In this document: positions 1 through 27,902 of the stretch, in pieces
Layout of the letters: every line of letters begins with the position of its first letter
How positions within the stretch are numbered: the first letter of the stretch is position 1
Assembly (NCBI RefSeq): GCF_046105845.1
Contig: NZ_CP151004.1
Source of the DNA: Escherichia coli
Lineage (GTDB): Bacteria > Pseudomonadota > Gammaproteobacteria > Enterobacterales > Enterobacteriaceae
DNA length: 64,000 nucleotides
Reading direction: 5' to 3' (one strand)
Notes under the pieces: model-generated
Databases searched by the model: none
What the model was told of the DNA's origin: nothing
What the model saw: the letters and a program-made list of their open reading frames with translations, nothing else
Translations under genes and position numbers: made by a program

Positions 1-3000
1 GTGGTGTATTCCACATTGTTAATCGTAACGGTAAGCGGCGTGCCTTCAGCCAGCCCCGAGCTACTGCCGCTGACCACCAGCGCCTGCCCGTGCTCGATGA
101 TATTGACCACATCATCGCCTGCCACCGTATCGACCCGCAGACCGGGCAGATTGGCGTCGATGGTGATATCCCGCGTGCCGCTGCCGGTGTTGCCGTTTTG
201 ATTGGTGACCGAGGCGCTCACCGTTAAATCGCCATTACCCAGCGCCTGAATAGCGTCCGCCGGAATGCTCACGCTCCAGCTTAATCCCGGCTGTACGGTG
301 GTGGTGTAGGTATTGCCACCCAGCGTAACGGTTACCGCGTCGCCAACGGCGGCTCCAGTCACCTGCCCGCTGATGGTTTGCGCGACGCCCGCTTCGGCGG
401 CGTTAATAATATCGTCGGTTGCCACCGGGTTAATGGTCACGCCGGGCAGCGCGCTGTCAACCAGCACGTTATGGCTGGCGGTGGCGCTGTTGCCGATATT
501 ACTCGTCACCGCCGCCGTTACCGTGTAGTTGGCCTGGCCCAGTGCGGTTACCGCCGATGCCGGAACGGTGACGCTCCAGTTGCCGGAGGCGTCGGTCGTG
601 GTGGTGTAATTTTGCCCGTTCAGCGTCACGGTGATGGCGGTATTGGCTGGCTGATCGCTGGTACCGGTAATCTGGACATCAGCCCCTTTTTCGCTGGCGT
701 TTATCACATCATCGCCAGCAATGGTGTTAATACCAATTACTGGCGCGGCGGTATTGACCGTGACAGTCAGTGACTGGCTGCCCGTGTTTCCGGCGCGGTC
801 AGTCACTGACACGTTGATCGGATAACTGCCATCCACCAGTCCGCTGACAACGGAAGCCGGAACGCCCAGGCTCCAGTTGCCGGAACCATCCACCACCGTG
901 GTGTAATCCACATTATTCAGCGTCACGGTGACGATATCGCCCGCCTGAGCGCCAGTAACCGTGCCGCTGATGATTTGCGCCTGGGTGTGTTCCGGCGTGT
1001 TGATGACGTTATCGGTCGCCACCGGATTAATGGTTACCACCGGCGGCGTGGCATCGACCAGCGCCACGCGTGAGACGCTGGTCGGGTTACCGGCGATATC
1101 GTTCACGCTGGCGGTGACGGTGGCGTTGCCGTCAGCCAGTGCGCCAACGTTGGCGGCGGGAACGGTCACGCTCCAGGTGCCGTCTGGCTGCACGACGCCC
1201 TGGTACGTCTGCCCGTTCAGCGTCACCGTTACCGTCTGCCCCGGCTGGGCGTCGGTGGTGCCGGTGATTTGCAGATCCTGACCACTTTCGGCGGCGTTAA
1301 TGATGTTATCAGCGGTCAGTGGATCGATACTTAAGGCCGGGGCCTGGCTGTCGACGGTAATGGTGCGAGAGGTGTTGCCGGTATTGCCGCTGAGATCCGT
1401 CACAGAAGCGGTAATCGCCACCGCGCCGTCAGGCAGATTTCCCATCGCGGCGGCAGGTACCGTCAGACTCCAGGAGCCATCAGCCTGCACGGTAGTAGTA
1501 AAACTCTGTCCAGCCAGGGTTACTGTGACGGTTTGTCCTGTCTCGGCCTGTTGAGTGCTACCGGTAAGGGTCAGTGGCGCACCTTTTTCTGCGCCACTGA
1601 TAATGTCATCGCCGGAGACGGTGTTAATGGTGATTAACGGAGAGACACCGACCAGCGTGATTGCTCGAGACGCCGCGCCGGTATTTCCTGCAGTATCTGT
1701 CACGGTGACGAAAATCGTATTGGCTCCGCGATCCAGCGTGCGGGTTACCGCTGGGTCCAGCGCCACATTCCAGCTGCCATCTGCCAGCACAATGCCCGTC
1801 AGGACATGAGTGCCCAATTTCACCGTTACCGTATCGCCAGGAGAAGCACCGCTGACTTGTCCGGAGATGATCTGCGCGACGGCCTGCTCAGCATTATTAA
1901 GAATATCGTCGCCCGCTACGGTATTAACACTGACCACGGGTGCTGAGGTATCTACCGTGAAATTCGCGCTGTGGCTGGTGCTGTTCCCAGCCCGATCGCT
2001 GACACTGGCATTGACAGCGTAATTACCCTCCGCCAGCGCCTGGACTTCCGTGGCTGGCAGCGTCACTTGCCAGGTTCCGTCGCTACCGACGGTTGCTGTA
2101 TGGCTTTTCCCGTTGACGGTCAGTGTTACGGTTTGCCCCGCTTCTGCATTCGACGTGCCGCTCAGTACCAGCGCGACGTTATGTTCCGCAGCACTGATGA
2201 TGTTGTCCTGAGCGATGGTGTTGATGGCAAGCGTTGGCGGTTGGGTATCGACCGTTAAAAGCTGCGCGCCGGTGACCGTATTGCCTGTGGCGTCTTTCCC
2301 GCTGACCAGCACTGCCTGATTCCCTTCGCCTAACGCCTGTGCATCGGCGGTCGGCACCTGCACGCTCCAGGCACCGTTAGCGCCTACGCTGGTGGTGTAG
2401 GTTTTGCCGTTTAGCGTAACGGTGAGTTCTGTTCCCTGCGCCAGATGGCTACTGGTACCAGAAAGCGTAAACCCGGCGGCCTGTTCGCTGGCGTTAATAA
2501 TGTTATCGCCTGCGGTGGTGGCAACCTGCACGCTGGCCTGACTATTGTCGATGGTTAACGTTATCGAACCGGCGTCAGTGATGGTACTGCCGACAATTTG
2601 CACCACTGACCAGGTATGTTCACCTGCACTTTGCGTGGGTAACGAGACACTCCAGTGACCGTTGTTGTCTACCTGAGTACTGGCAATAGTATTGCCGTTA
2701 CTGTCTTTAATCTGAATAGTCGCCCCCGCCTGCCCGCTGCCGCTAAAGGTTGGCGTGGTATCATCGGTGATGTCATTGGTGGCGAGAATGCCGCGCTGAT
2801 CGCCCTGATTATCGATAACTAAAAATGATGGTGTGGCAACACCCGGTTCAGGCACAGGCTCAGCGGGTGGCGTAGGGTTATTAATCACTTCCGTTTTCGA
2901 GTCGCCATCACCACCGCTTGCCAGCAGTGCACCAAGCGCACCACCACCTACCGCCGCCCCCGCCAGCCAACCCCACGGGAAGGCGCTGGTCTGAGCAACG

Positions 3001-3368
3001 GTATCAAGAAATGGCGCAATGCTTTCAATCGCAGTGGTCTGGGCAGTCAGTTCTACGGGGGCTAATCCACCCGCAGCAGTATCGGCGAAGGTGACATGGG
3101 TTAGCTGTTGCCCATCGGCAAACACCAGTTCCGATTGTTCAGCTGTATTCGCCGCTTGCAGGAAATAACCGTTGCAGCGGATCACCGTGCCGTCCTGCAT
3201 ATAGATCAGCAGGTCATTTCCTTCACGGACGTAACGCGCAACGGCAGAGGCCTGAGCATGAACCTGCACCACGGAAGGCTCATAAATAACAACCGTGACG
3301 TCGCCAGGATTAATCAGCGTTTGTTTGACGGATGTTTTACGCGAAATAACATCAATAATCAGGCTCAT
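1..3368 (-). CDS. Giant tandem-repeat Ig-like adhesin, probable type I secretion substrate; 5' portion only, gene continues past window start
   Basis: Manual minus-strand translation from ATG at 3368-3366 (AGGAA 8 nt upstream) reads MSLIIDVISRKTSVKQTLINPGDVTVVIYEPSVVQVHAQA... with no stops over the stretch checked (3061-3368); downstream shows ~100-aa Thr/Val/Gly-rich repeats. Absent from ORF track because no stop lies in the window. Confidence 0.7.
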   Translation of the reverse strand, partial: MSLIIDVISRKTSVKQTLINPGDVTVVIYEPSVVQVHAQASAVARYVREGNDLLIYMQDGTVIRCNGYFLQAANTAEQSELVFADGQQLTHVTFADTAAGGLAPVELTAQTTAIESIAPFLDTVAQTSAFPWGWLAGAAVGGGALGALLASGGDGDSKTEVINNPTPPAEPVPEPGVATPSFLVIDNQGDQRGILATNDITDDTTPTFSGSGQAGATIQIKDSNGNTIASTQVDNNGHWSVSLPTQSAGEHTWSVVQIVGSTITDAGSITLTIDNSQASVQVATTAGDNIINASEQAAGFTLSGTSSHLAQGTELTVTLNGKTYTTSVGANGAWSVQVPTADAQALGEGNQAVLVSGKDATGNTVTGAQLLTVDTQPPTLAINTIAQDNIISAAEHNVALVLSGTSNAEAGQTVTLTVNGKSHTATVGSDGTWQVTLPATEVQALAEGNYAVNASVSDRAGNSTSHSANFTVDTSAPVVSVNTVAGDDILNNAEQAVAQIISGQVSGASPGDTVTVKLGTHVLTGIVLADGSWNVALDPAVTRTLDRGANTIFVTVTDTAGNTGAASRAITLVGVSPLITINTVSGDDIISGAEKGAPLTLTGSTQQAETGQTVTVTLAGQSFTTTVQADGSWSLTVPAAAMGNLPDGAVAITASVTDLSGNTGNTSRTITVDSQAPALSIDPLTADNIINAAESGQDLQITGTTDAQPGQTVTVTLNGQTYQGVVQPDGTWSVTVPAANVGALADGNATVTASVNDIAGNPTSVSRVALVDATPPVVTINPVATDNVINTPEHTQAQIISGTVTGAQAGDIVTVTLNNVDYTTVVDGSGNWSLGVPASVVSGLVDGSYPINVSVTDRAGNTGSQSLTVTVNTAAPVIGINTIAGDDVINASEKGADVQITGTSDQPANTAITVTLNGQNYTTTTDASGNWSVTVPASAVTALGQANYTVTAAVTSNIGNSATASHNVLVDSALPGVTINPVATDDIINAAEAGVAQTISGQVTGAAVGDAVTVTLGGNTYTTTVQPGLSWSVSIPADAIQALGNGDLTVSASVTNQNGNTGSGTRDITIDANLPGLRVDTVAGDDVVNIIEHGQALVVSGSSSGLAEGTPLTVTINNVEYT

Positions 3369-3470
3369 AATGGCATTCCTGATAAATGGCGCACATCCTT
3401 AGCGAGTCCATTTATCTAAATAAGACAAAGGTAATCACTTAACAACGGCCCACTATTAATAATGGCAGGA

Positions 3471-4826
3471 TTATTTCAAGTCGGGTAAGTCGTTGTATAA
3501 GCCCTGTTTAATTCCCGCTAATGGAATAAGGTTATTCACCGCAGCGGCATAATTTACGGCGGCGACCCAGCCATCATAATTGGCATTTATTTCAGCCGAT
3601 TGCGCCTGAAAGACATCTTGCTCGACGGTTAATAGATCATTCAGACTGCGTTTGCCCAATTTATATTCATTTTGGTACACTTCTCGCGTTTTGTGCGCAC
3701 TTTCGGATTGTGCTAAACCGGCTTCTTCGCGACCTCGTGCGCCGGTCCAGTTCGCATATGCCACAGACGCTCGTTGCAGCACATCCAGTTTTGCCTGTTC
3801 GACCTGCGAGGCAGAGATTTTTTGTTGCCCTTCAGCTTGTTGCACCTGGGCTGAAACTGCGCCGCCCTGATACAGCGGCGCGTTAACGTTCAGTTGTAAC
3901 TGATCATCCCAATACGAGCGGTCGCTGGTCTGGTAGCGCGTTTTGCCCCCCTGAATACTCAGCGTTGGCCAGTATTGCGCTTTCGTTTTTTCCACGCCGT
4001 ACTGTGCTGACTGGCGTAAGTTTTCTGCCGCCAGCACCAGCGGGATGGACTGGTAATCAATATTTTTCAGCGACACCGGCTGCTCGGCTAATTCAGCAGG
4101 TGGCGCGGCTATCGCCTCCGGCTGTACGCCAGTGAGCACCGCCAGTTGCGCTTTGGCGCTTGCCATCTGCGCCTGATATTGCTCCAGCGTTGAGCGCATT
4201 CCGGCAATGCGCGTCTGGGCTTGTAATTCATCCGACGATGAGTTCAGGCCAGCGTTAGCGCGCAATGCCGCCATGTTGTAGACGTTTTCCAGCGAGTGAA
4301 TATTGCGTTGAGCCGCATCGCACAAAGCCTGATAACGACTGACTTCCATATAGGCAGTCGCCGTTTTCTCTGCAACATCGGTTAAGGTTGCCATCAATTT
4401 AAAGCGGTAGCTGTCACGGGCGGCAGTTTGCAGATTGATATCGTTGTTTGTTTTACCAAAGTCATACACCAGCTGTGTCAGGGTTATGCCATACGAAACG
4501 TTGTTATCAAGCCTGCCGCTGGAATCCGTTTGTCGGGACGGCCCCGCGTTGCCGGTTAATCCAACGTGCGGATACCAGGCACTTTTGGCTTCATCAATTT
4601 GCGCTTCGCCAATGCCTATCTGCGCCGCCTGTTGAGTGACGTCGGGATTTCGCGCAAAGGCGCGTAATATACTTTCCTGTAAAGATAATCGGGCAACTGG
4701 CGTTACCGCTGGGGCGTTCGCCCATTGTGGCAGCGGTGCAGCAATTGTAGCTTCTCCCATCACCATAAAACTTATTAAAAAAATAAACCCATTATTTTTA
4801 CGGCTTTTAAACTGGAATCGCGCCAT
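3471..4826 (-). CDS. TolC-family outer membrane efflux protein, probable type I secretion outer-membrane component
   Basis: 451-aa ORF with N-terminal signal-like hydrophobic segment and TolC-like composition; sits directly upstream of the adhesin gene on the same strand. Confidence 0.75.
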   Translation of the reverse strand: MARFQFKSRKNNGFIFLISFMVMGEATIAAPLPQWANAPAVTPVARLSLQESILRAFARNPDVTQQAAQIGIGEAQIDEAKSAWYPHVGLTGNAGPSRQTDSSGRLDNNVSYGITLTQLVYDFGKTNNDINLQTAARDSYRFKLMATLTDVAEKTATAYMEVSRYQALCDAAQRNIHSLENVYNMAALRANAGLNSSSDELQAQTRIAGMRSTLEQYQAQMASAKAQLAVLTGVQPEAIAAPPAELAEQPVSLKNIDYQSIPLVLAAENLRQSAQYGVEKTKAQYWPTLSIQGGKTRYQTSDRSYWDDQLQLNVNAPLYQGGAVSAQVQQAEGQQKISASQVEQAKLDVLQRASVAYANWTGARGREEAGLAQSESAHKTREVYQNEYKLGKRSLNDLLTVEQDVFQAQSAEINANYDGWVAAVNYAAAVNNLIPLAGIKQGLYNDLPDLK

Positions 4827-5129
4827 AGATAAGTCACTTCCTTCCAGGTCATTATTTTAACTGGTTTTTATAACCAGTCTCATTTTATTAAGAAGGGTAA
4901 TAACTTGTGCATCTCTTTTGTCGATCATTGATATGGGCAAAGAAATGCAGCTAAAAAGCTTATACGTTATTTATTTAGAATACACTACGACTTTTAGATT
5001 ACCATCATACACATTAAGAATAATCCACGGTAATAAGTGATTAGCATCACAGATTTATCGCGTATATATCATTTTTTTGTGACTTATTTATTAAAGGAAT
5101 AAGAAAGGAAATTTGAATTAAAGACAAAG

Positions 5130-7391: not shown

Positions 7392-7582
7392 CTTTTGTTA
7401 ACTCCTTTTTATAGATGCGGGAGGTAATTCCTCACCCCGGTGCCGATTTTCAGGCATCCTGATTTAACTTAGCACCCGCAACTTAACTACAGGAAAACAA
7501 AGAGATAAATGTCTAATCCTGATGCAAATCGAGCCGATTTTTTAATCTTTACGGACTTTTACCCGCCTGGTTTATTAATTTC

Positions 7583-7613
7583 TTGACCTTCCCCTTGCTG
7601 GAAGGTTTAACCT
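7583..7613 (+). promoter_or_regulatory. copA promoter with CueR (MerR-type) operator
   Basis: -35 TTGACC at 7583-7588; dyad CCTTCC-N7-GGAAGG at 7587-7605; long MerR-style spacer before the -10 region. Confidence 0.75.
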
Positions 7614-7653
7614 TTATCACAGCCAGTCAAAACTGTCTTAAAAGGAGTGTTTT

Positions 7654-10158
7654 ATGTCACAAACTATCGACCTGACCCTGGACGGCCTGTCCTGCGGTCA
7701 CTGCGTTAAACGCGTGAAAGAAAGTCTCGAACAGCGCCCGGATGTTGAGCAGGCGGATGTGTCTGTCACTGAAGCGCACGTTACCGGGACTGCCAGTGCA
7801 GAACAGCTGATCGAAACCATCAAACAAGCGGGTTATGACGCATCTGTAAGCCACCCAAAGGCTAAACCGCTGGCGGAGTCATCAATCCCGTCGGAAGCAC
7901 TGACAGCGGTTTCTGAGGCGCTTCCGGCAGCGACCGCCGATGACGATGACAGCCAGCAGTTGCTGCTGAGCGGCATGAGCTGCGCCAGCTGTGTCACCCG
8001 CGTACAAAATGCGCTGCAAAGCGTACCGGGCGTCACTCAGGCACGGGTAAACCTGGCGGAGCGTACTGCGCTGGTGATGGGCAGTGCCTCCCCACAAGAT
8101 TTAGTGCAGGCGGTGGAAAAAGCGGGCTACGGCGCGGAAGCGATTGAAGATGACGCTAAACGCCGCGAGCGCCAGCAAGAAACCGCCGTCGCTACGATGA
8201 AGCGCTTCCGCTGGCAGGCGATTGTCGCACTGGCGGTGGGTATCCCGGTGATGGTCTGGGGGATGATCGGCGATAACATGATGGTCACCGCCGACAACCG
8301 CAGCCTGTGGTTGGTTATCGGCCTGATAACCCTGGCGGTAATGGTTTTCGCCGGCGGGCATTTTTACCGCAGCGCATGGAAAAGCCTGCTGAACGGTGCA
8401 GCGACGATGGATACGCTGGTGGCGCTAGGTACTGGCGTGGCGTGGCTCTATTCGATGAGCGTCAACCTGTGGCCGCAGTGGTTCCCGATGGAAGCGCGAC
8501 ATCTTTATTACGAAGCCAGTGCGATGATTATCGGTTTGATTAATCTCGGCCATATGCTGGAAGCACGCGCACGTCAGCGTTCTTCTAAGGCGCTGGAGAA
8601 ATTACTCGATTTAACCCCACCGACGGCGCGCCTGGTTACTGACGAAGGTGAAAAAAGCGTGCCTCTGGCAGAAGTGCAGCCAGGTATGTTGCTGCGCCTG
8701 ACGACCGGCGATCGCGTGCCGGTAGATGGCGAGATTACCCAGGGCGAAGCATGGCTGGATGAAGCGATGCTGACGGGCGAACCAATCCCGCAGCAAAAAG
8801 GCGAAGGCGATAGCGTCCATGCCGGGACAGTGGTACAGGACGGCAGTGTGCTGTTTCGTGCCAGTGCGGTCGGCAGCCATACTACGCTGTCACGAATCAT
8901 TCGCATGGTGCGCCAGGCCCAGAGCAGCAAGCCTGAAATCGGCCAACTGGCGGATAAAATCTCCGCTGTGTTTGTGCCGGTGGTGGTAGTCATTGCGCTG
9001 GTCAGTGCGGCAATCTGGTATTTCTTTGGCCCGGCACCGCAAATTGTTTATACCCTGGTGATTGCCACCACGGTGCTGATTATCGCCTGTCCGTGTGCGC
9101 TGGGACTGGCGACGCCGATGTCGATTATTTCGGGCGTCGGGCGGGCGGCTGAGTTTGGTGTGCTGGTGCGGGACGCCGACGCGCTGCAACGCGCCAGTAC
9201 GCTCGACACCGTGGTGTTCGATAAAACCGGGACGCTGACCGAAGGGAAGCCGCAGGTTGTCGCAGTAAAAACATTTGCTGATATTGATGAAGCGCAAGCA
9301 TTGCGTCTGGCGGCGGCGCTGGAGCAAGGTTCCAGCCACCCGCTGGCACGGGCGATCCTCGATAAAGCAGGTGATATGCAGCTACCGCAGGTCAACGGTT
9401 TCCGCACATTGCGCGGGCTGGGTGTGAGCGGTGAAGCTGAAGGTCATGCGGTATTGCTGGGCAATCAGGCGCTGTTAAATGACCAGCAAGTTGATACTAA
9501 AGCGATTGAGGCAGATATTTCAGCTCAGGCATCGCAAGGGGCAACGCCTGTGCTGCTGGCGGTTGACGGGAAAGCGGTGGCCTTGCTGGCAGTACGCGAT
9601 CCGTTGCGTAACGATAGCGTGGCGGCGCTGCAACGTCTGCATAAAGCGGGATATCGTCTGGTGATGTTGACCGGGGATAACCCAACCACCGCCAATGCGA
9701 TCGCCAAAGAAGCAGGGATTGATGAGGTGATCGCCGGGGTGCTGCCGGACGGTAAAGCCGAAGCGATCAAACGTCTGCAAAGTGAAGGACGTCAGGTGGC
9801 AATGGTGGGCGACGGCATTAACGACGCGCCAGCGCTGGCCCAGGCGGATGTCGGTATTGCGATGGGTGGCGGCAGTGATGTTGCCATTGAAACCGCGGCG
9901 ATTACCCTGATGCGCCATAGCCTGATGGGTGTTGCAGATGCGCTCGCGATTTCCCGCGCAACGCTGCGCAATATGAAGCAGAACCTGCTCGGTGCGTTTA
10001 TCTACAACAGCATTGGTATTCCGGTCGCCGCCGGTATTTTGTGGCCGTTCACTGGAACACTGCTTAACCCGGTGGTTGCCGGAGCGGCAATGGCGCTATC
10101 GTCGATTACCGTAGTGAGTAACGCCAACCGGTTACTGCGGTTTAAACCGAAAGAGTGA
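7654..10158 (+). CDS. copA: Cu(I)-translocating P-type ATPase
   Basis: 834-aa ORF with two N-terminal GMSCxxC metal-binding domains, CPC and DKTGT motifs. Confidence 0.96.
7854..7860 (+). other. copA: Programmed -1 ribosomal frameshift site in copA (slippery heptamer C CCA AAG) giving the CopA(Z) chaperone
   Basis: CCCAAAG lies in the 0 frame at codons 67-69; the -1 frame reads CCC AAA GGC TAA, terminating after ~70 aa. Confidence 0.7.
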
Positions 10159-17111: not shown

Positions 17112-17914
<803 letters not shown>

Positions 17915-18018
17915 ATCAGCATACTTGTCCTTAGCCTTCTGCAGTGACAGCTGGTAGTACAGCGTGCTTCTGGCCAGCCCTGCAGCCTTTAACAGGTCAG
18001 ACTGGCAGTGTCCGCACC

Positions 18019-18549
18019 TCAGGCTCCGGATGACTTTCGTTTTTTCTCCAGCTCCTGGCGCTTTTTTTCCAGGAGATGCTCCTGCATGGCTTTCAGATAT
18101 GCATTTTCTGCGCGAAGATAACGCAGCTCATTCTTCATCTCTTCCGGCGTCATGTTTGCCTCGTTTTCATGGGTATCATCAGAACGGGTCATGCTTTTCT
18201 CCTTCCTGCGCCTGATAAAGGCCTCATTACCAGATTTGCGGTAGCCTTTTATCCAGTTTTTAACCGTGTTGTGGCTGGGAATGTTAAACCGGGCAGCTAC
18301 CCGGGGTAGAGACTCAGAATGCCCGAGAGCATAAAGAACCACGCAAAGTTTATCTTCAGGAGAATAGCTACGCTTGTGTCTGCAATCCAGTGCCCGAGGA
18401 CCGTGAAGAAGAAAAAGATTAATCCAGTGTGAGAGGCTGGTGTGAGAAAGTTGAAAGAGTTTTGCCGTAGAAATGATGCCTGCATGACCAGCCAGGTAAT
18501 GATTTACAGCGGCAAGTTTTACTTCAAATGAATGTTTCATAAACTGCAC
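18019..18549 (-). CDS. IS3-family transposase OrfA (HTH plus leucine zipper)
   Basis: 176-aa ORF; C-terminal heptad leucines (LRYLRAENAYLKAMQEHLLEKKRQELEKK). Confidence 0.85.
   Translation of the reverse strand: MQFMKHSFEVKLAAVNHYLAGHAGIISTAKLFQLSHTSLSHWINLFLLHGPRALDCRHKRSYSPEDKLCVVLYALGHSESLPRVAARFNIPSHNTVKNWIKGYRKSGNEAFIRRRKEKSMTRSDDTHENEANMTPEEMKNELRYLRAENAYLKAMQEHLLEKKRQELEKKRKSSGA
18061..18067 (-). other. A AAA AAG programmed -1 frameshift motif at the end of IS orfA
   Basis: Minus strand reads CTG GAA AAA AAG CGC in the orfA frame, the classical IS3-family slippery heptamer. Confidence 0.6.
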
Positions 18550-25970: not shown

Positions 25971-27902
25971 TCAAATGGGGCGGATACTTTCTTCATCCAG
26001 CTCCGCATCGAAGAACCGACGCAGGGTCTGAATATTATTATCCGCAATAATGGACTCGCGCGCCTGCGCAAGTTTTTCTTCGTATATCGCCTGACGCCAT
26101 TCCAGCGGCGTACGCACCGCGGGATTATCATCTTCAACGATAGTCAGTTCAACCGTTGAACCTTTTAACGTGCTCAACGCTTCAGCCAGTTTTTGCTGTG
26201 CACCGCGGTTGTTCAAATGCCGCTGAGAGGAGCGCAAATGCAGACATACTGCGTTGTCGCTCTCCTCTTTCCAGGCATTTAGCGCCACCTGTTCGACCAG
26301 TTTTGGTAGCGAAAGTTGGCTCACCTGTGCCGCCCACGGGTCGCGCTCAATGGCTTCTGCCGCCAGCTTCGCCGCCAGTTCCGGCGTTTTTTCATGTTCC
26401 AGCGCTTTTTTTAGCGCCTTCGGCGTGGCGACCACTTCTTTTTGCTGCATCACTGGAGTGGTGGCCTTCCAGCGATACGCTTCTTTTTTGGCTGGCGCTT
26501 TTTCCAGCGCCGATGGCACCGGGCGCGCCTGAACGCGATCGGTGACCGAAGCCAGTCTTTCCAGCGCAGCGTTATTCACCGGCCGCGCGCGGGTAGCGGC
26601 TGCCGGTTCACTCTTTTTTGCTTTGGTTGCTCCCTGCACGCGCTGCAACTGCTGGCGCGCCGCCAGCACCTGGCTGGTGGTTTCCGGGAGCGGTACAGTC
26701 GGTGCCTGCTGCGGCGCTGATTGCGGTTGCGGCGGCACCTGTGTTGGCGTCATTACTGCCGTTGGCGCGACGGGCGCAAAGGACTGGCGTGGCACTTCTG
26801 GCTCAGGCAGCGGCATACGCGGATGGAACGCCAGCGCGCGAAGCAGCGTCATCTCAACGCCCATACGGCGGTCTGGCGCATACGGTAATTCTTTGCGACC
26901 AATCAACAGCGTCTGATAGTAAAGCTGAATATCCGTCGGCGGTATGGTGCGCGCCAGTTCACGCATCCGCAGCTCGATGGCAGCCATGTCGTTGCCAAGT
27001 GCAGCAGGCGAAAGTTGTACCATCGCAATACGATGCAACAGACCGAGCATTTCCACCAGCAACGCTTCCCACTCGATACCACGGGCAGCGGCTTCATTAA
27101 TCAGCGCCATTACGCGCTCGCCGTTGGCCTCGACCATCGCTTCAACCAGCGACAGCGCCTGATCGTCGTCAAGCGTACCCAGCATCGCACTGACCGCCTG
27201 AGTTGAAACCTGGCCGTCACCGCTGGCAATCGCCTGGTCGGTCAGACTTAAGGCATCTCGCAGGCTGCCTTCAGCGGCGCGTGCCAGCAATTGCAGCGCC
27301 CGCGGCTCGTGAGCGATATGTTCTTCGTTGAGGATGTGCTCAAGCTGATGGCGAATTTGCTCGACATCCAGCGCCTTGAGATGAAATTGCAGACAACGTG
27401 ACAAAATCGTCACCGGCAATTTCTGCGGATCGGTCGTCGCCAGCAGAAACTTAACGTGCTCCGGCGGCTCTTCAAGGGTTTTTAACAGTGCGTTAAAGCT
27501 GTGGCGCGACAGCATATGCACTTCGTCGATCAAATAAACTTTGAAACGACCACGCGCCGGAGCGTACTGGACGTTATCCAGCAGGTCGCGGGTATCTTCA
27601 ACTTTGGTGCGCGAGGCGGCGTCGATTTCAATCAGATCGACAAAGCGCCCCTGCTCGATTTCACGACAGTTATCGCACACGCCGCACGGCGTCGCGGTAA
27701 TGCCGGTTTCGCAGTTTAGCCCCTTCGCCAGCAGTCGGGCGATAGAGGTTTTTCCGACGCCACGGGTACCGGAAAAAAGATAAGCATGATGAATACGCCC
27801 TAACGACAAGCCGTTCGCCAGTGCGGTCAGCACATGTTCCTGGCCGACGACGTCAGCAAAGGTTTGTGGGCGCCATTTTCGGGCTAAGACCTGATAACTC
27901 AT
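25971..27902 (-). CDS. dnaX: DNA polymerase III subunits tau and gamma
   Basis: 643-aa ORF with AAA+ motifs (GTRGVGKT) and internal frameshift site. Confidence 0.97.
   Translation of the reverse strand: MSYQVLARKWRPQTFADVVGQEHVLTALANGLSLGRIHHAYLFSGTRGVGKTSIARLLAKGLNCETGITATPCGVCDNCREIEQGRFVDLIEIDAASRTKVEDTRDLLDNVQYAPARGRFKVYLIDEVHMLSRHSFNALLKTLEEPPEHVKFLLATTDPQKLPVTILSRCLQFHLKALDVEQIRHQLEHILNEEHIAHEPRALQLLARAAEGSLRDALSLTDQAIASGDGQVSTQAVSAMLGTLDDDQALSLVEAMVEANGERVMALINEAAARGIEWEALLVEMLGLLHRIAMVQLSPAALGNDMAAIELRMRELARTIPPTDIQLYYQTLLIGRKELPYAPDRRMGVEMTLLRALAFHPRMPLPEPEVPRQSFAPVAPTAVMTPTQVPPQPQSAPQQAPTVPLPETTSQVLAARQQLQRVQGATKAKKSEPAAATRARPVNNAALERLASVTDRVQARPVPSALEKAPAKKEAYRWKATTPVMQQKEVVATPKALKKALEHEKTPELAAKLAAEAIERDPWAAQVSQLSLPKLVEQVALNAWKEESDNAVCLHLRSSQRHLNNRGAQQKLAEALSTLKGSTVELTIVEDDNPAVRTPLEWRQAIYEEKLAQARESIIADNNIQTLRRFFDAELDEESIRPI
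26613..26619 (-). other. dnaX: dnaX programmed -1 frameshift site (A AAA AAG) producing gamma
   Basis: Minus strand reads GCAGGGAGCAACCAAAGCAAAAAAGAGTGAACCGGCAGCC...: SD-like AGGGAG upstream, heptamer, then a stem-loop; the -1 frame stops at GAG TGA. Confidence 0.85.

Follow-up and report, generated by a model that had tools for sequence, protein, structure and literature searches.

The stretch of Escherichia coli DNA analysed here, 64 kb in length and referred to as the window, carries on its plus strand a gene annotated in RefSeq as copA, whose features are collected in Table 1. The Pfam architecture of its zero-frame product comprises E1-E2_ATPase, Hydrolase (HAD) and two HMA stretches, and a 1-kb piece spanning the site discussed below is 100% identical to several complete E. 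coli genomes, where it lies inside annotated copA. The spacer of the upstream promoter contains a dyad, ACCTTCC/GGAAGGT at 7586-7592 and 7600-7606, which was recovered by an inverted-repeat search and which we take to be the CueR operator of PcopA. The promoter region, dyad included, is identical to that of K-12. It was not detected by a generic sigma-70 scan with a spacer range of 16-18, because its spacer of 19 bp falls outside that range. Identity to annotated chromosomes, the Pfam assignment and the K-12-like promoter dyad all point to the CueR-regulated Cu(I) P1B-ATPase gene copA of E. coli as the host gene.

Table 1. Positions of the copA features, and of the in-phase X_XXA_AAG sites, in the window.
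Feature	Position	Strand	Description
copA promoter, MerR/CueR type	7583..7613	+	-35 TTGACC 7583-7588; 19-bp spacer; -10 TAACCT 7608-7613
copA Shine-Dalgarno AAGGAG	7642..7647	+	6 nt 5' of ATG at 7654; sequence reading
copA zero-frame ORF	7654..10158	+	834 aa, Cu(I)-exporting P1B-type ATPase, two N-terminal HMA domains; copA in RefSeq
CopA(Z) coding region	7654..7865	+	212 nt: zero frame 7654-7860, then -1 frame from 7860 (GGC, TAA)
First HMA domain (MBD1), body of CopA(Z)	7675..7839	+	residues 8-62, GLSCGHC copper site; Pfam PF00403 (E = 8.4e-14 for the 70 aa of CopA(Z))
Suppressed synonymous change, codons 67-92	7852..7929	+	covers heptamer, spacer, both stems and loops
Slippery heptamer C_CCA_AAG	7854..7860	+	third base of codon 67, then codons 68 and 69
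Spacer GCUAAA, heptamer to first conserved pair	7861..7866	+	6 nt
-1 frame stop TAA	7863..7865	+	one codon past the slip; -1 frame = CCC AAA GGC TAA
Pseudoknot stem S1 (predicted)	7867..7909	+	CCGCUG 7867-7872 / CAGCGG 7904-7909; -9.2 kcal/mol as isolated hairpin
Pseudoknot stem S2 (predicted)	7891..7927	+	UCGGAAGC 7891-7898 / GCUUCCGG 7920-7927; -10.3 kcal/mol as isolated hairpin
copA X_XXA_AAG site	7854	+	annotated -1 frameshift site in the K-12 record
dnaX X_XXA_AAG site	26619->26613, ORF 25971..27902	-	'DnaX frameshifting element' feature in collinear strain 7/2
IS1397 (IS3-family) transposase X_XXA_AAG site	ORF 18019..18549	-	'programmed frameshift' in strain 7/2 annotation

Codons 67 to 69 of copA read CAC (His, 7852-7854), CCA (Pro, 7855-7857) and AAG (Lys, 7858-7860), with GCT following as codon 70. 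The heptamer formed by the last base of codon 67 and the whole of codons 68 and 69 is therefore in the X_XXY_YYZ phase for a tandem -1 slip. A sequence-only reading of this DNA had placed CCCAAAG at 7854-7860 inside copA, and it does lie there, the accompanying description as codons 67-69 being loosely right in that codon 67 supplies its last base only. The same reading had derived CCC AAA GGC TAA for the slipped frame and a product that ends just past the first metal-binding domain; both hold, with the stop at 7863-7865 and the HMA domain assigned by Pfam to residues 8-62 of 70. The predicted product, CopA(Z), consists of 69 CopA residues followed by Gly and thus amounts to 70 aa. Among PDB sequences it matches the CopZ chaperones 6ff2 and 1cpz as well as metal-binding domains of ATPases.

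The bare CCCAAAG is not above chance, with two copies in the window against 8.05 expected. In combination with phase it is rare. Across the 834 codons of copA only one in-phase X_XXY_YYZ heptamer is present, namely CCCAAAG at 7854, and in the 49 long ORFs of the window (18,001 codons) there are 29 in-phase heptamers, the counts for the two remaining phases being 65 and 63. Restriction of the same ORFs to in-phase X_XXA_AAG leaves three sites, in copA, dnaX and IS1397, each of them annotated as a site of -1 frameshifting, so that this filter returned no false positives in the 64-kb window. This result suggests that such a simple filter could allow CopA(Z) to be annotated routinely.

Alignment of the window with K-12 MG1655 reveals zero differences in a segment that runs from roughly codon 39 to a point over 130 nt 3' of the heptamer and so takes in the slippery site, the -1 stop and the two stems; upstream of it are two synonymous changes, I38V, and a 1-nt indel in the 5' leader. 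In the K-12 RefSeq record copA has two CDS, one for the ATPase and one for YP_009518752.1, 'soluble Cu(+) chaperone', the latter a joined two-piece CDS of 212 nt, a length one base short of 70 codons and a stop. The K-12 allele of the slip-derived 70-mer matches exactly both YP_009518752.1 and the UniProt entry 'Isoform Soluble copper chaperone CopA(Z)'. The window allele differs from it at a single residue, Val38 here and Ile38 in K-12, and residues 39-69 of CopA are identical; the Val38 70-mer found no exact match in a collection of 15 billion sequences. The equation of this site with the described E. coli CopA(Z) recoding, made from the sequence at the outset, is thereby supported, the cassette being identical to that of K-12 and the K-12-allele 70-mer being the curated entry. 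It had further been claimed that ORF tracks cannot display the product. That proved correct, and automatic annotation fares no better, since PGAP lists full-length copA alone, with no CopA(Z) entry, in the collinear strain 7/2.

The copA/CopA(Z) frameshift in the window is already known, having been published in 2017 and curated in K-12 RefSeq and UniProt, and therefore nothing new is added here about E. coli. The primary paper on the E. coli K-12 copA -1 frameshift that makes CopA(Z) is that of Meydan et al. (2017, Mol Cell 65:207), and Drees et al. (2017, Mol Microbiol 106:635) reportedly treated the copA frameshift and CopA(Z) of the same strain. Ribosome profiling has been described as supporting the event well, footprint density falling past the site, and the Drees study of 2017 as an independent confirmation (PMC9548414). 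The two products have been given as 70 aa by frameshift versus 834 aa in the zero frame (PMC5009743), and copA has been placed among the well-characterised cases of frameshifting (PMC10861913); it is also covered in PMC6771820 and PMC6182138. A chaperone function of CopA(Z) and a contribution of the nascent peptide to frameshift efficiency have both been reported (PMC7558416).

To place the site in a wider context, the copA 5' region of the window was compared with 15 others, giving a set of 16, of which three came from a genome-contig scan and 12 from look-ups with N-terminal protein fragments and exact proteins. For these 12 the underlying copA gene calls were fragmented, and L085, which is among them, resembles E. 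coli in sequence and does not count as an independent lineage. The genera named in the comparison are Citrobacter, Enterobacter, Klebsiella, Atlantibacter, Cronobacter, Erwinia, Pantoea, Photorhabdus and Proteus. All 16 Enterobacterales sequences carry an in-phase C_CCA_AAG or C_CCA_AAA. Codon 70 is likewise NCT and codon 71 begins with AA or GA in 16 of 16, even where the N-terminal architecture differs, and a -1 TAA or TGA therefore lies exactly one codon past the slip in every member of the set. The -1 stop is retained while the encoded residues vary, from A to P, S or T at codon 70 and among K, N, D and E at codon 71. The genome-contig scan itself comprised 80 loci, three of them from Enterobacterales, and its matches were dominated by the universal P-type ATPase motif MVGDGIND. 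The combination of heptamer and -1 stop was found in none of the 77 distant CopA loci of that scan (0/77). The few in-phase heptamers that do occur close to HMA domains in these distant homologues are unrelated codon runs, mostly Lys-Lys (VKKAG) or similar, and share no common cassette.

Synonymous variation is strongly depressed over codons 67-92. It was measured on pairs of codons encoding the same amino acid, as the proportion in which the two are not identical. Among seven collinear enterobacterial genera, 18 of 443 such pairs (0.04) differ over codons 67-92, compared with 499 of 1098 (0.45) over codons 2-66 and 698 of 1857 (0.38) over codons 93-205, corresponding to an approximately 10-fold lower variation than in the flanks. 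Of 5422 E. coli genomes, 5343 carry an identical 86-nt cassette, and the surrounding 1 kb is present at an identity of at least 99% in 2796. One cassette variant that was inspected carries a synonymous GCG>GCT change confined to loop 1. In the E. coli-like genera this long loop 1 is under a synonymous constraint equal to that of the stems.

Downstream of the heptamer, two helices (S1 and S2) are predicted to interleave as an H-type pseudoknot that begins 6 nt 3' of the slippery site, and thus within the distance of about 5-9 nt at which a canonical -1 programmed ribosomal frameshifting (PRF) cassette requires its stimulatory structure. The earlier suggestion to look for a pseudoknot in this place was rewarded as to the structure, and fell short as to its extent, which is about 62 nt (7866-7928) rather than about 40 nt. 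In E. coli, S1 could extend outward to 7864 by A-U pairs that are not conserved in relatives, and S2 could extend to 7890/7928. Across 15 sequences, 95.6% of cells are paired in S1, with two compensatory pairs, and 82.5% in S2, with three, the latter contributed by Photorhabdus, L093 and Proteus. For both stems together, 88% of cells are paired, compared with 21-49% after displacement of the partners by 1-3 columns, and a count of five compensatory pairs was attained in 8 of 500 shuffles. The compensatory changes include C:G>A:U and C:G>U:A in S1 (Erwinia and Pantoea) and G:C>C:G, G:C>U:A and C:G>U:A in S2 (Photorhabdus, L093 and Proteus).

RNAalifold, which draws no pseudoknots, recovered S1 independently; inside S1 it placed a small hairpin (7891-7894/7900-7903) that competes with S2 and fits the alignment about as well. 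Another candidate for the first stem, CUGGCGG/CCGUCGG (7870-76/7888-94), was rejected on account of an A-C mismatch, seen by eye, in Enterobacter Bisph1, Klebsiella, Atlantibacter and Cronobacter. An Rfam search at the copA element assigned no family, all matches lying far below gathering scores. Nested folds of the single E. coli sequence gave modest z-scores of -1.4 to -2.1, and a simple spaced-pseudoknot scorer applied to that sequence gave equally high scores to 6.2% of its synonymous recodings and, elsewhere in copA, to 1.4% of positions. Because this single-sequence evidence is modest, the case for the pseudoknot rests on the comparison and on the literature. The S1 and S2 helices presumably correspond to the published copA pseudoknot.

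Taken together, the site in the window is almost certainly the programmed -1 ribosomal frameshift of E. coli copA, by which one mRNA yields both the pump and the chaperone CopA(Z). The heptamer in the correct phase, purifying selection at synonymous sites and a conserved trans-frame product consisting of a complete HMA domain, as found in a canonical -1 PRF cassette, are all present. Briefly, when a ribosome arrives at C_CCA_AAG, its P site would hold tRNA-Pro paired with CCA and its A site tRNA-Lys paired with AAG, while the mRNA pseudoknot formed by S1 and S2, some 6 nt downstream at the mRNA entrance, would resist unwinding and impose a pause. In a fraction of ribosomes both tRNAs would slip back by one base and pair anew with CCC and AAA, a detail that follows established knowledge of such sites. 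These shifted ribosomes would then read GGC (Gly), terminate at the TAA and release the 70-aa CopA(Z), a single HMA domain expected to act as a soluble Cu(I) chaperone, and the unshifted ones would go on to produce the 834-aa ATPase. That CopA(Z) is actually made, that this occurs with high efficiency and that the protein works as a chaperone is taken from the literature.

The simplest objection to programmed frameshifting is that the heptamer reflects a coincidence of Pro and Lys codons, the full-length ATPase being the sole product and the conserved features serving the protein alone. Such a view could appeal to the bare heptamer, which is no commoner than chance would have it, and to the modest statistics of single-sequence folding. 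It is nevertheless extremely improbable: the -1 stop (NCT, RAN) is preserved in all 16 sequences despite varying amino acids, constraint on synonymous sites exceeds that of the flanks about 10-fold, both stems contain compensatory changes, and the product has a place in curated databases and in experimental reports in the literature (PMC9548414). A 70-aa product dependent on the heptamer has already been reported for K-12, whose cassette is identical. Very unlikely as well, if by a slightly narrower degree, is the idea that a short copA transcript of its own, or proteolysis of CopA, is the main source of the small MBD1 protein, with frameshifting in a minor role. In the form cited in PMC7558416, the title of the 2017 paper by Drees et al. 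does name 'differential transcript formation' alongside frameshifting, and a product of the 5' segment whose origin was not understood had been proposed earlier (PMC5009743). Against a short transcript, no intrinsic-terminator-like site was found 3' of the heptamer on the plus strand (7400-8300 searched), and the -1 stop, conserved in 16 of 16, would still be needed to end the protein at 70 aa. Neither route, as the only source of the protein, accounts for the conserved -1 stop or for the Gly with which the curated product ends, as it is encoded by the -1 frame only. Ribosome footprint density, moreover, drops past the site (PMC9548414).

A further possibility is that the conserved RNA structure serves mainly another use, such as a pause for MBD1 folding, membrane targeting or mRNA stability, with the frameshift as a tolerated by-product. 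In its favour, the synonymous constraint spans the loops as well as the stems, most conspicuously the loop 1 of about 18 nt, which a minimal stimulator model does not call for, and an alternative inner hairpin can be drawn. The heptamer and the immediate -1 stop, however, change position together with the structure: where HMA domains were added upstream, as in Photorhabdus, L093 and Proteus, the whole cassette is found as a unit after the last extra domain. Because heptamer, stop and structure sit together there, this explanation is unlikely, and with the chaperone function of CopA(Z) reported in the literature (PMC7558416) we regard it as hardly credible. Transcriptional slippage was also considered and rejected; the three-base runs of the site are, by established knowledge, too short for slippage of RNA polymerase.

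Comparison with known systems helps to place the programmed frameshift of copA. The closest of these is copA of E. coli K-12 itself, which shares the gene, the heptamer, the codons, the -1 GGC TAA and the layout of the 212-nt joined CDS with the window, and which differs in having Ile38 instead of Val38, in the two upstream synonymous changes and in the 1-nt leader difference. The small product, listed for K-12, is absent from the PGAP annotation of the strain considered here. The tau/gamma site of E. coli dnaX (A_AAA_AAG) is similarly a chromosomal, non-mobile -1 PRF on X_XXA_AAG, in which the stop follows after one extra codon and the truncated N-terminal product is functional. The stimulators of dnaX are a hairpin and an upstream internal SD-like element, with no pseudoknot, unlike copA. 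A 'DnaX frameshifting element' exists in Rfam and PGAP for dnaX, whereas the copA element is without an Rfam family. With the stand-alone CopZ/Atx1-type chaperones, as encoded by copZ of Enterococcus hirae and Bacillus subtilis, CopA(Z) has in common the HMA fold, a size of about 70 aa, the CxxC motif and a proposed hand-over of Cu(I) to CopA. In Enterococcus hirae and Bacillus subtilis, however, CopZ is the product of a separate gene, while CopA(Z) is the first domain of the pump, released by recoding, and E. coli is described as lacking copZ (PMC6747150).

In lineages with extra N-terminal HMA domains, the C_CCA_AAA cassette is located after the second or third of these domains. The corresponding frameshift products, of roughly 140 aa or 206 aa, are predicted to be chaperones with two HMA domains in tandem in Photorhabdus (L006) and in L093, and one with three such domains in Proteus vulgaris (L092). 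It is possible, though on balance we lean against it, that relatives produce such tandem-HMA chaperones and that loop 1 and the inner hairpin hint at a fold that switches and could thereby adjust the ratio of pump to chaperone.

For E. coli, a real recoding site that is missed by ORF tracks and by NCBI automatic annotation was recognisable from the sequence alone. Since one CueR-controlled mRNA encodes both proteins, pump and chaperone would rise together with copper. The biology behind the site is known: a single mRNA yields the copper pump and its chaperone.

Automatic annotation appears to omit CopA(Z), the 70-aa product of the -1 frameshift in copA (7654-7865). The PGAP annotation of strain 7/2 (NZ_CP023820.1) holds full-length copA only, and in 20 sampled hits the listed features name the ATPase alone, with no small product; the Val38 allele of CopA(Z) was not found in a collection of ~15 billion proteins. 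Public collections contain numerous N-terminal fragments of CopA (P0001-P0120; loci L084-L095), 120-370 aa long and derived from genomes that are otherwise complete; one cluster comprises 567 members. These are copA genes broken by frameshifts further downstream. Upstream of the gene, the copA promoter was missed by a generic sigma-70 scan; with its spacer and dyad (see the table), it is presumably of the MerR/CueR type.

Across seven genera, the synonymous sites of pseudoknot loop 1 are frozen to the same degree as those of the stems. A small inner hairpin (7891-7894/7900-7903), proposed from modelled pairing, could act as a competitor of stem S2. A minimal stimulator model explains neither the constraint on loop 1 nor this hairpin.

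Features of the copA region and other -1 frameshift sites (window coordinates)
Feature	Position	Strand	Remarks
copA promoter	7583-7613	+	over-long 19-bp spacer; perfect dyad ACCTTCC/GGAAGGT
Pseudoknot loop 1	7873-7890	+	~18 nt
Pseudoknot loop 3	7910-7919	+	
IS1397 transposase (IS3 family)	17192-18549	-	heptamer 18061-18067
dnaX -1 frameshift site A_AAA_AAG	26613-26619	-	within ORF 25971..27902 (-)

With slippery heptamers in copA, dnaX and IS1397, the window therefore holds three separate programmed -1 frameshift sites. The dnaX site reads GCA AAA AAG AGT GAA in the zero frame and GAG TGA in the -1 frame, and the annotation of strain 7/2 places a 'DnaX frameshifting element' feature there; this classic frameshift yields the gamma subunit. 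The IS1397 heptamer, also A_AAA_AAG, lies in phase close to the end of orfA, and the same annotation labels the transposase 'programmed frameshift'. Among 49 long ORFs of the whole window, X_XXY_YYZ heptamers are about half as common in phase as in either other codon phase (29 versus 65 and 63), a deficit that fits with selection acting against slippery sites that arise by chance.

Gene content upstream of ybaT (~1-4830) was assigned by collinearity with NZ_CP023820.1, in which two features are annotated adjoining ybaT: a TolC-family outer-membrane gene carrying a frameshift, and the beginning of siiEA, which encodes a giant BapA-related adhesin. Neither was seen in the K-12 stretch viewed.

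Three relatives carry one or two additional N-terminal HMA domains in CopA, namely Photorhabdus caribbeanensis (L006:1011), Proteus vulgaris (L092:1809) and the bearer of locus L093:1608. In all three, the same frameshift cassette as in the window's copA is located past the last extra domain and consists of C_CCA_AAA, a -1 TGA one codon on, and stems S1 and S2 with compensatory changes. The -1 products predicted from these sequences would be proteins of 140 aa in P. caribbeanensis and 139 aa at L093, each with two HMA domains, and of 206 aa with three in P. vulgaris.
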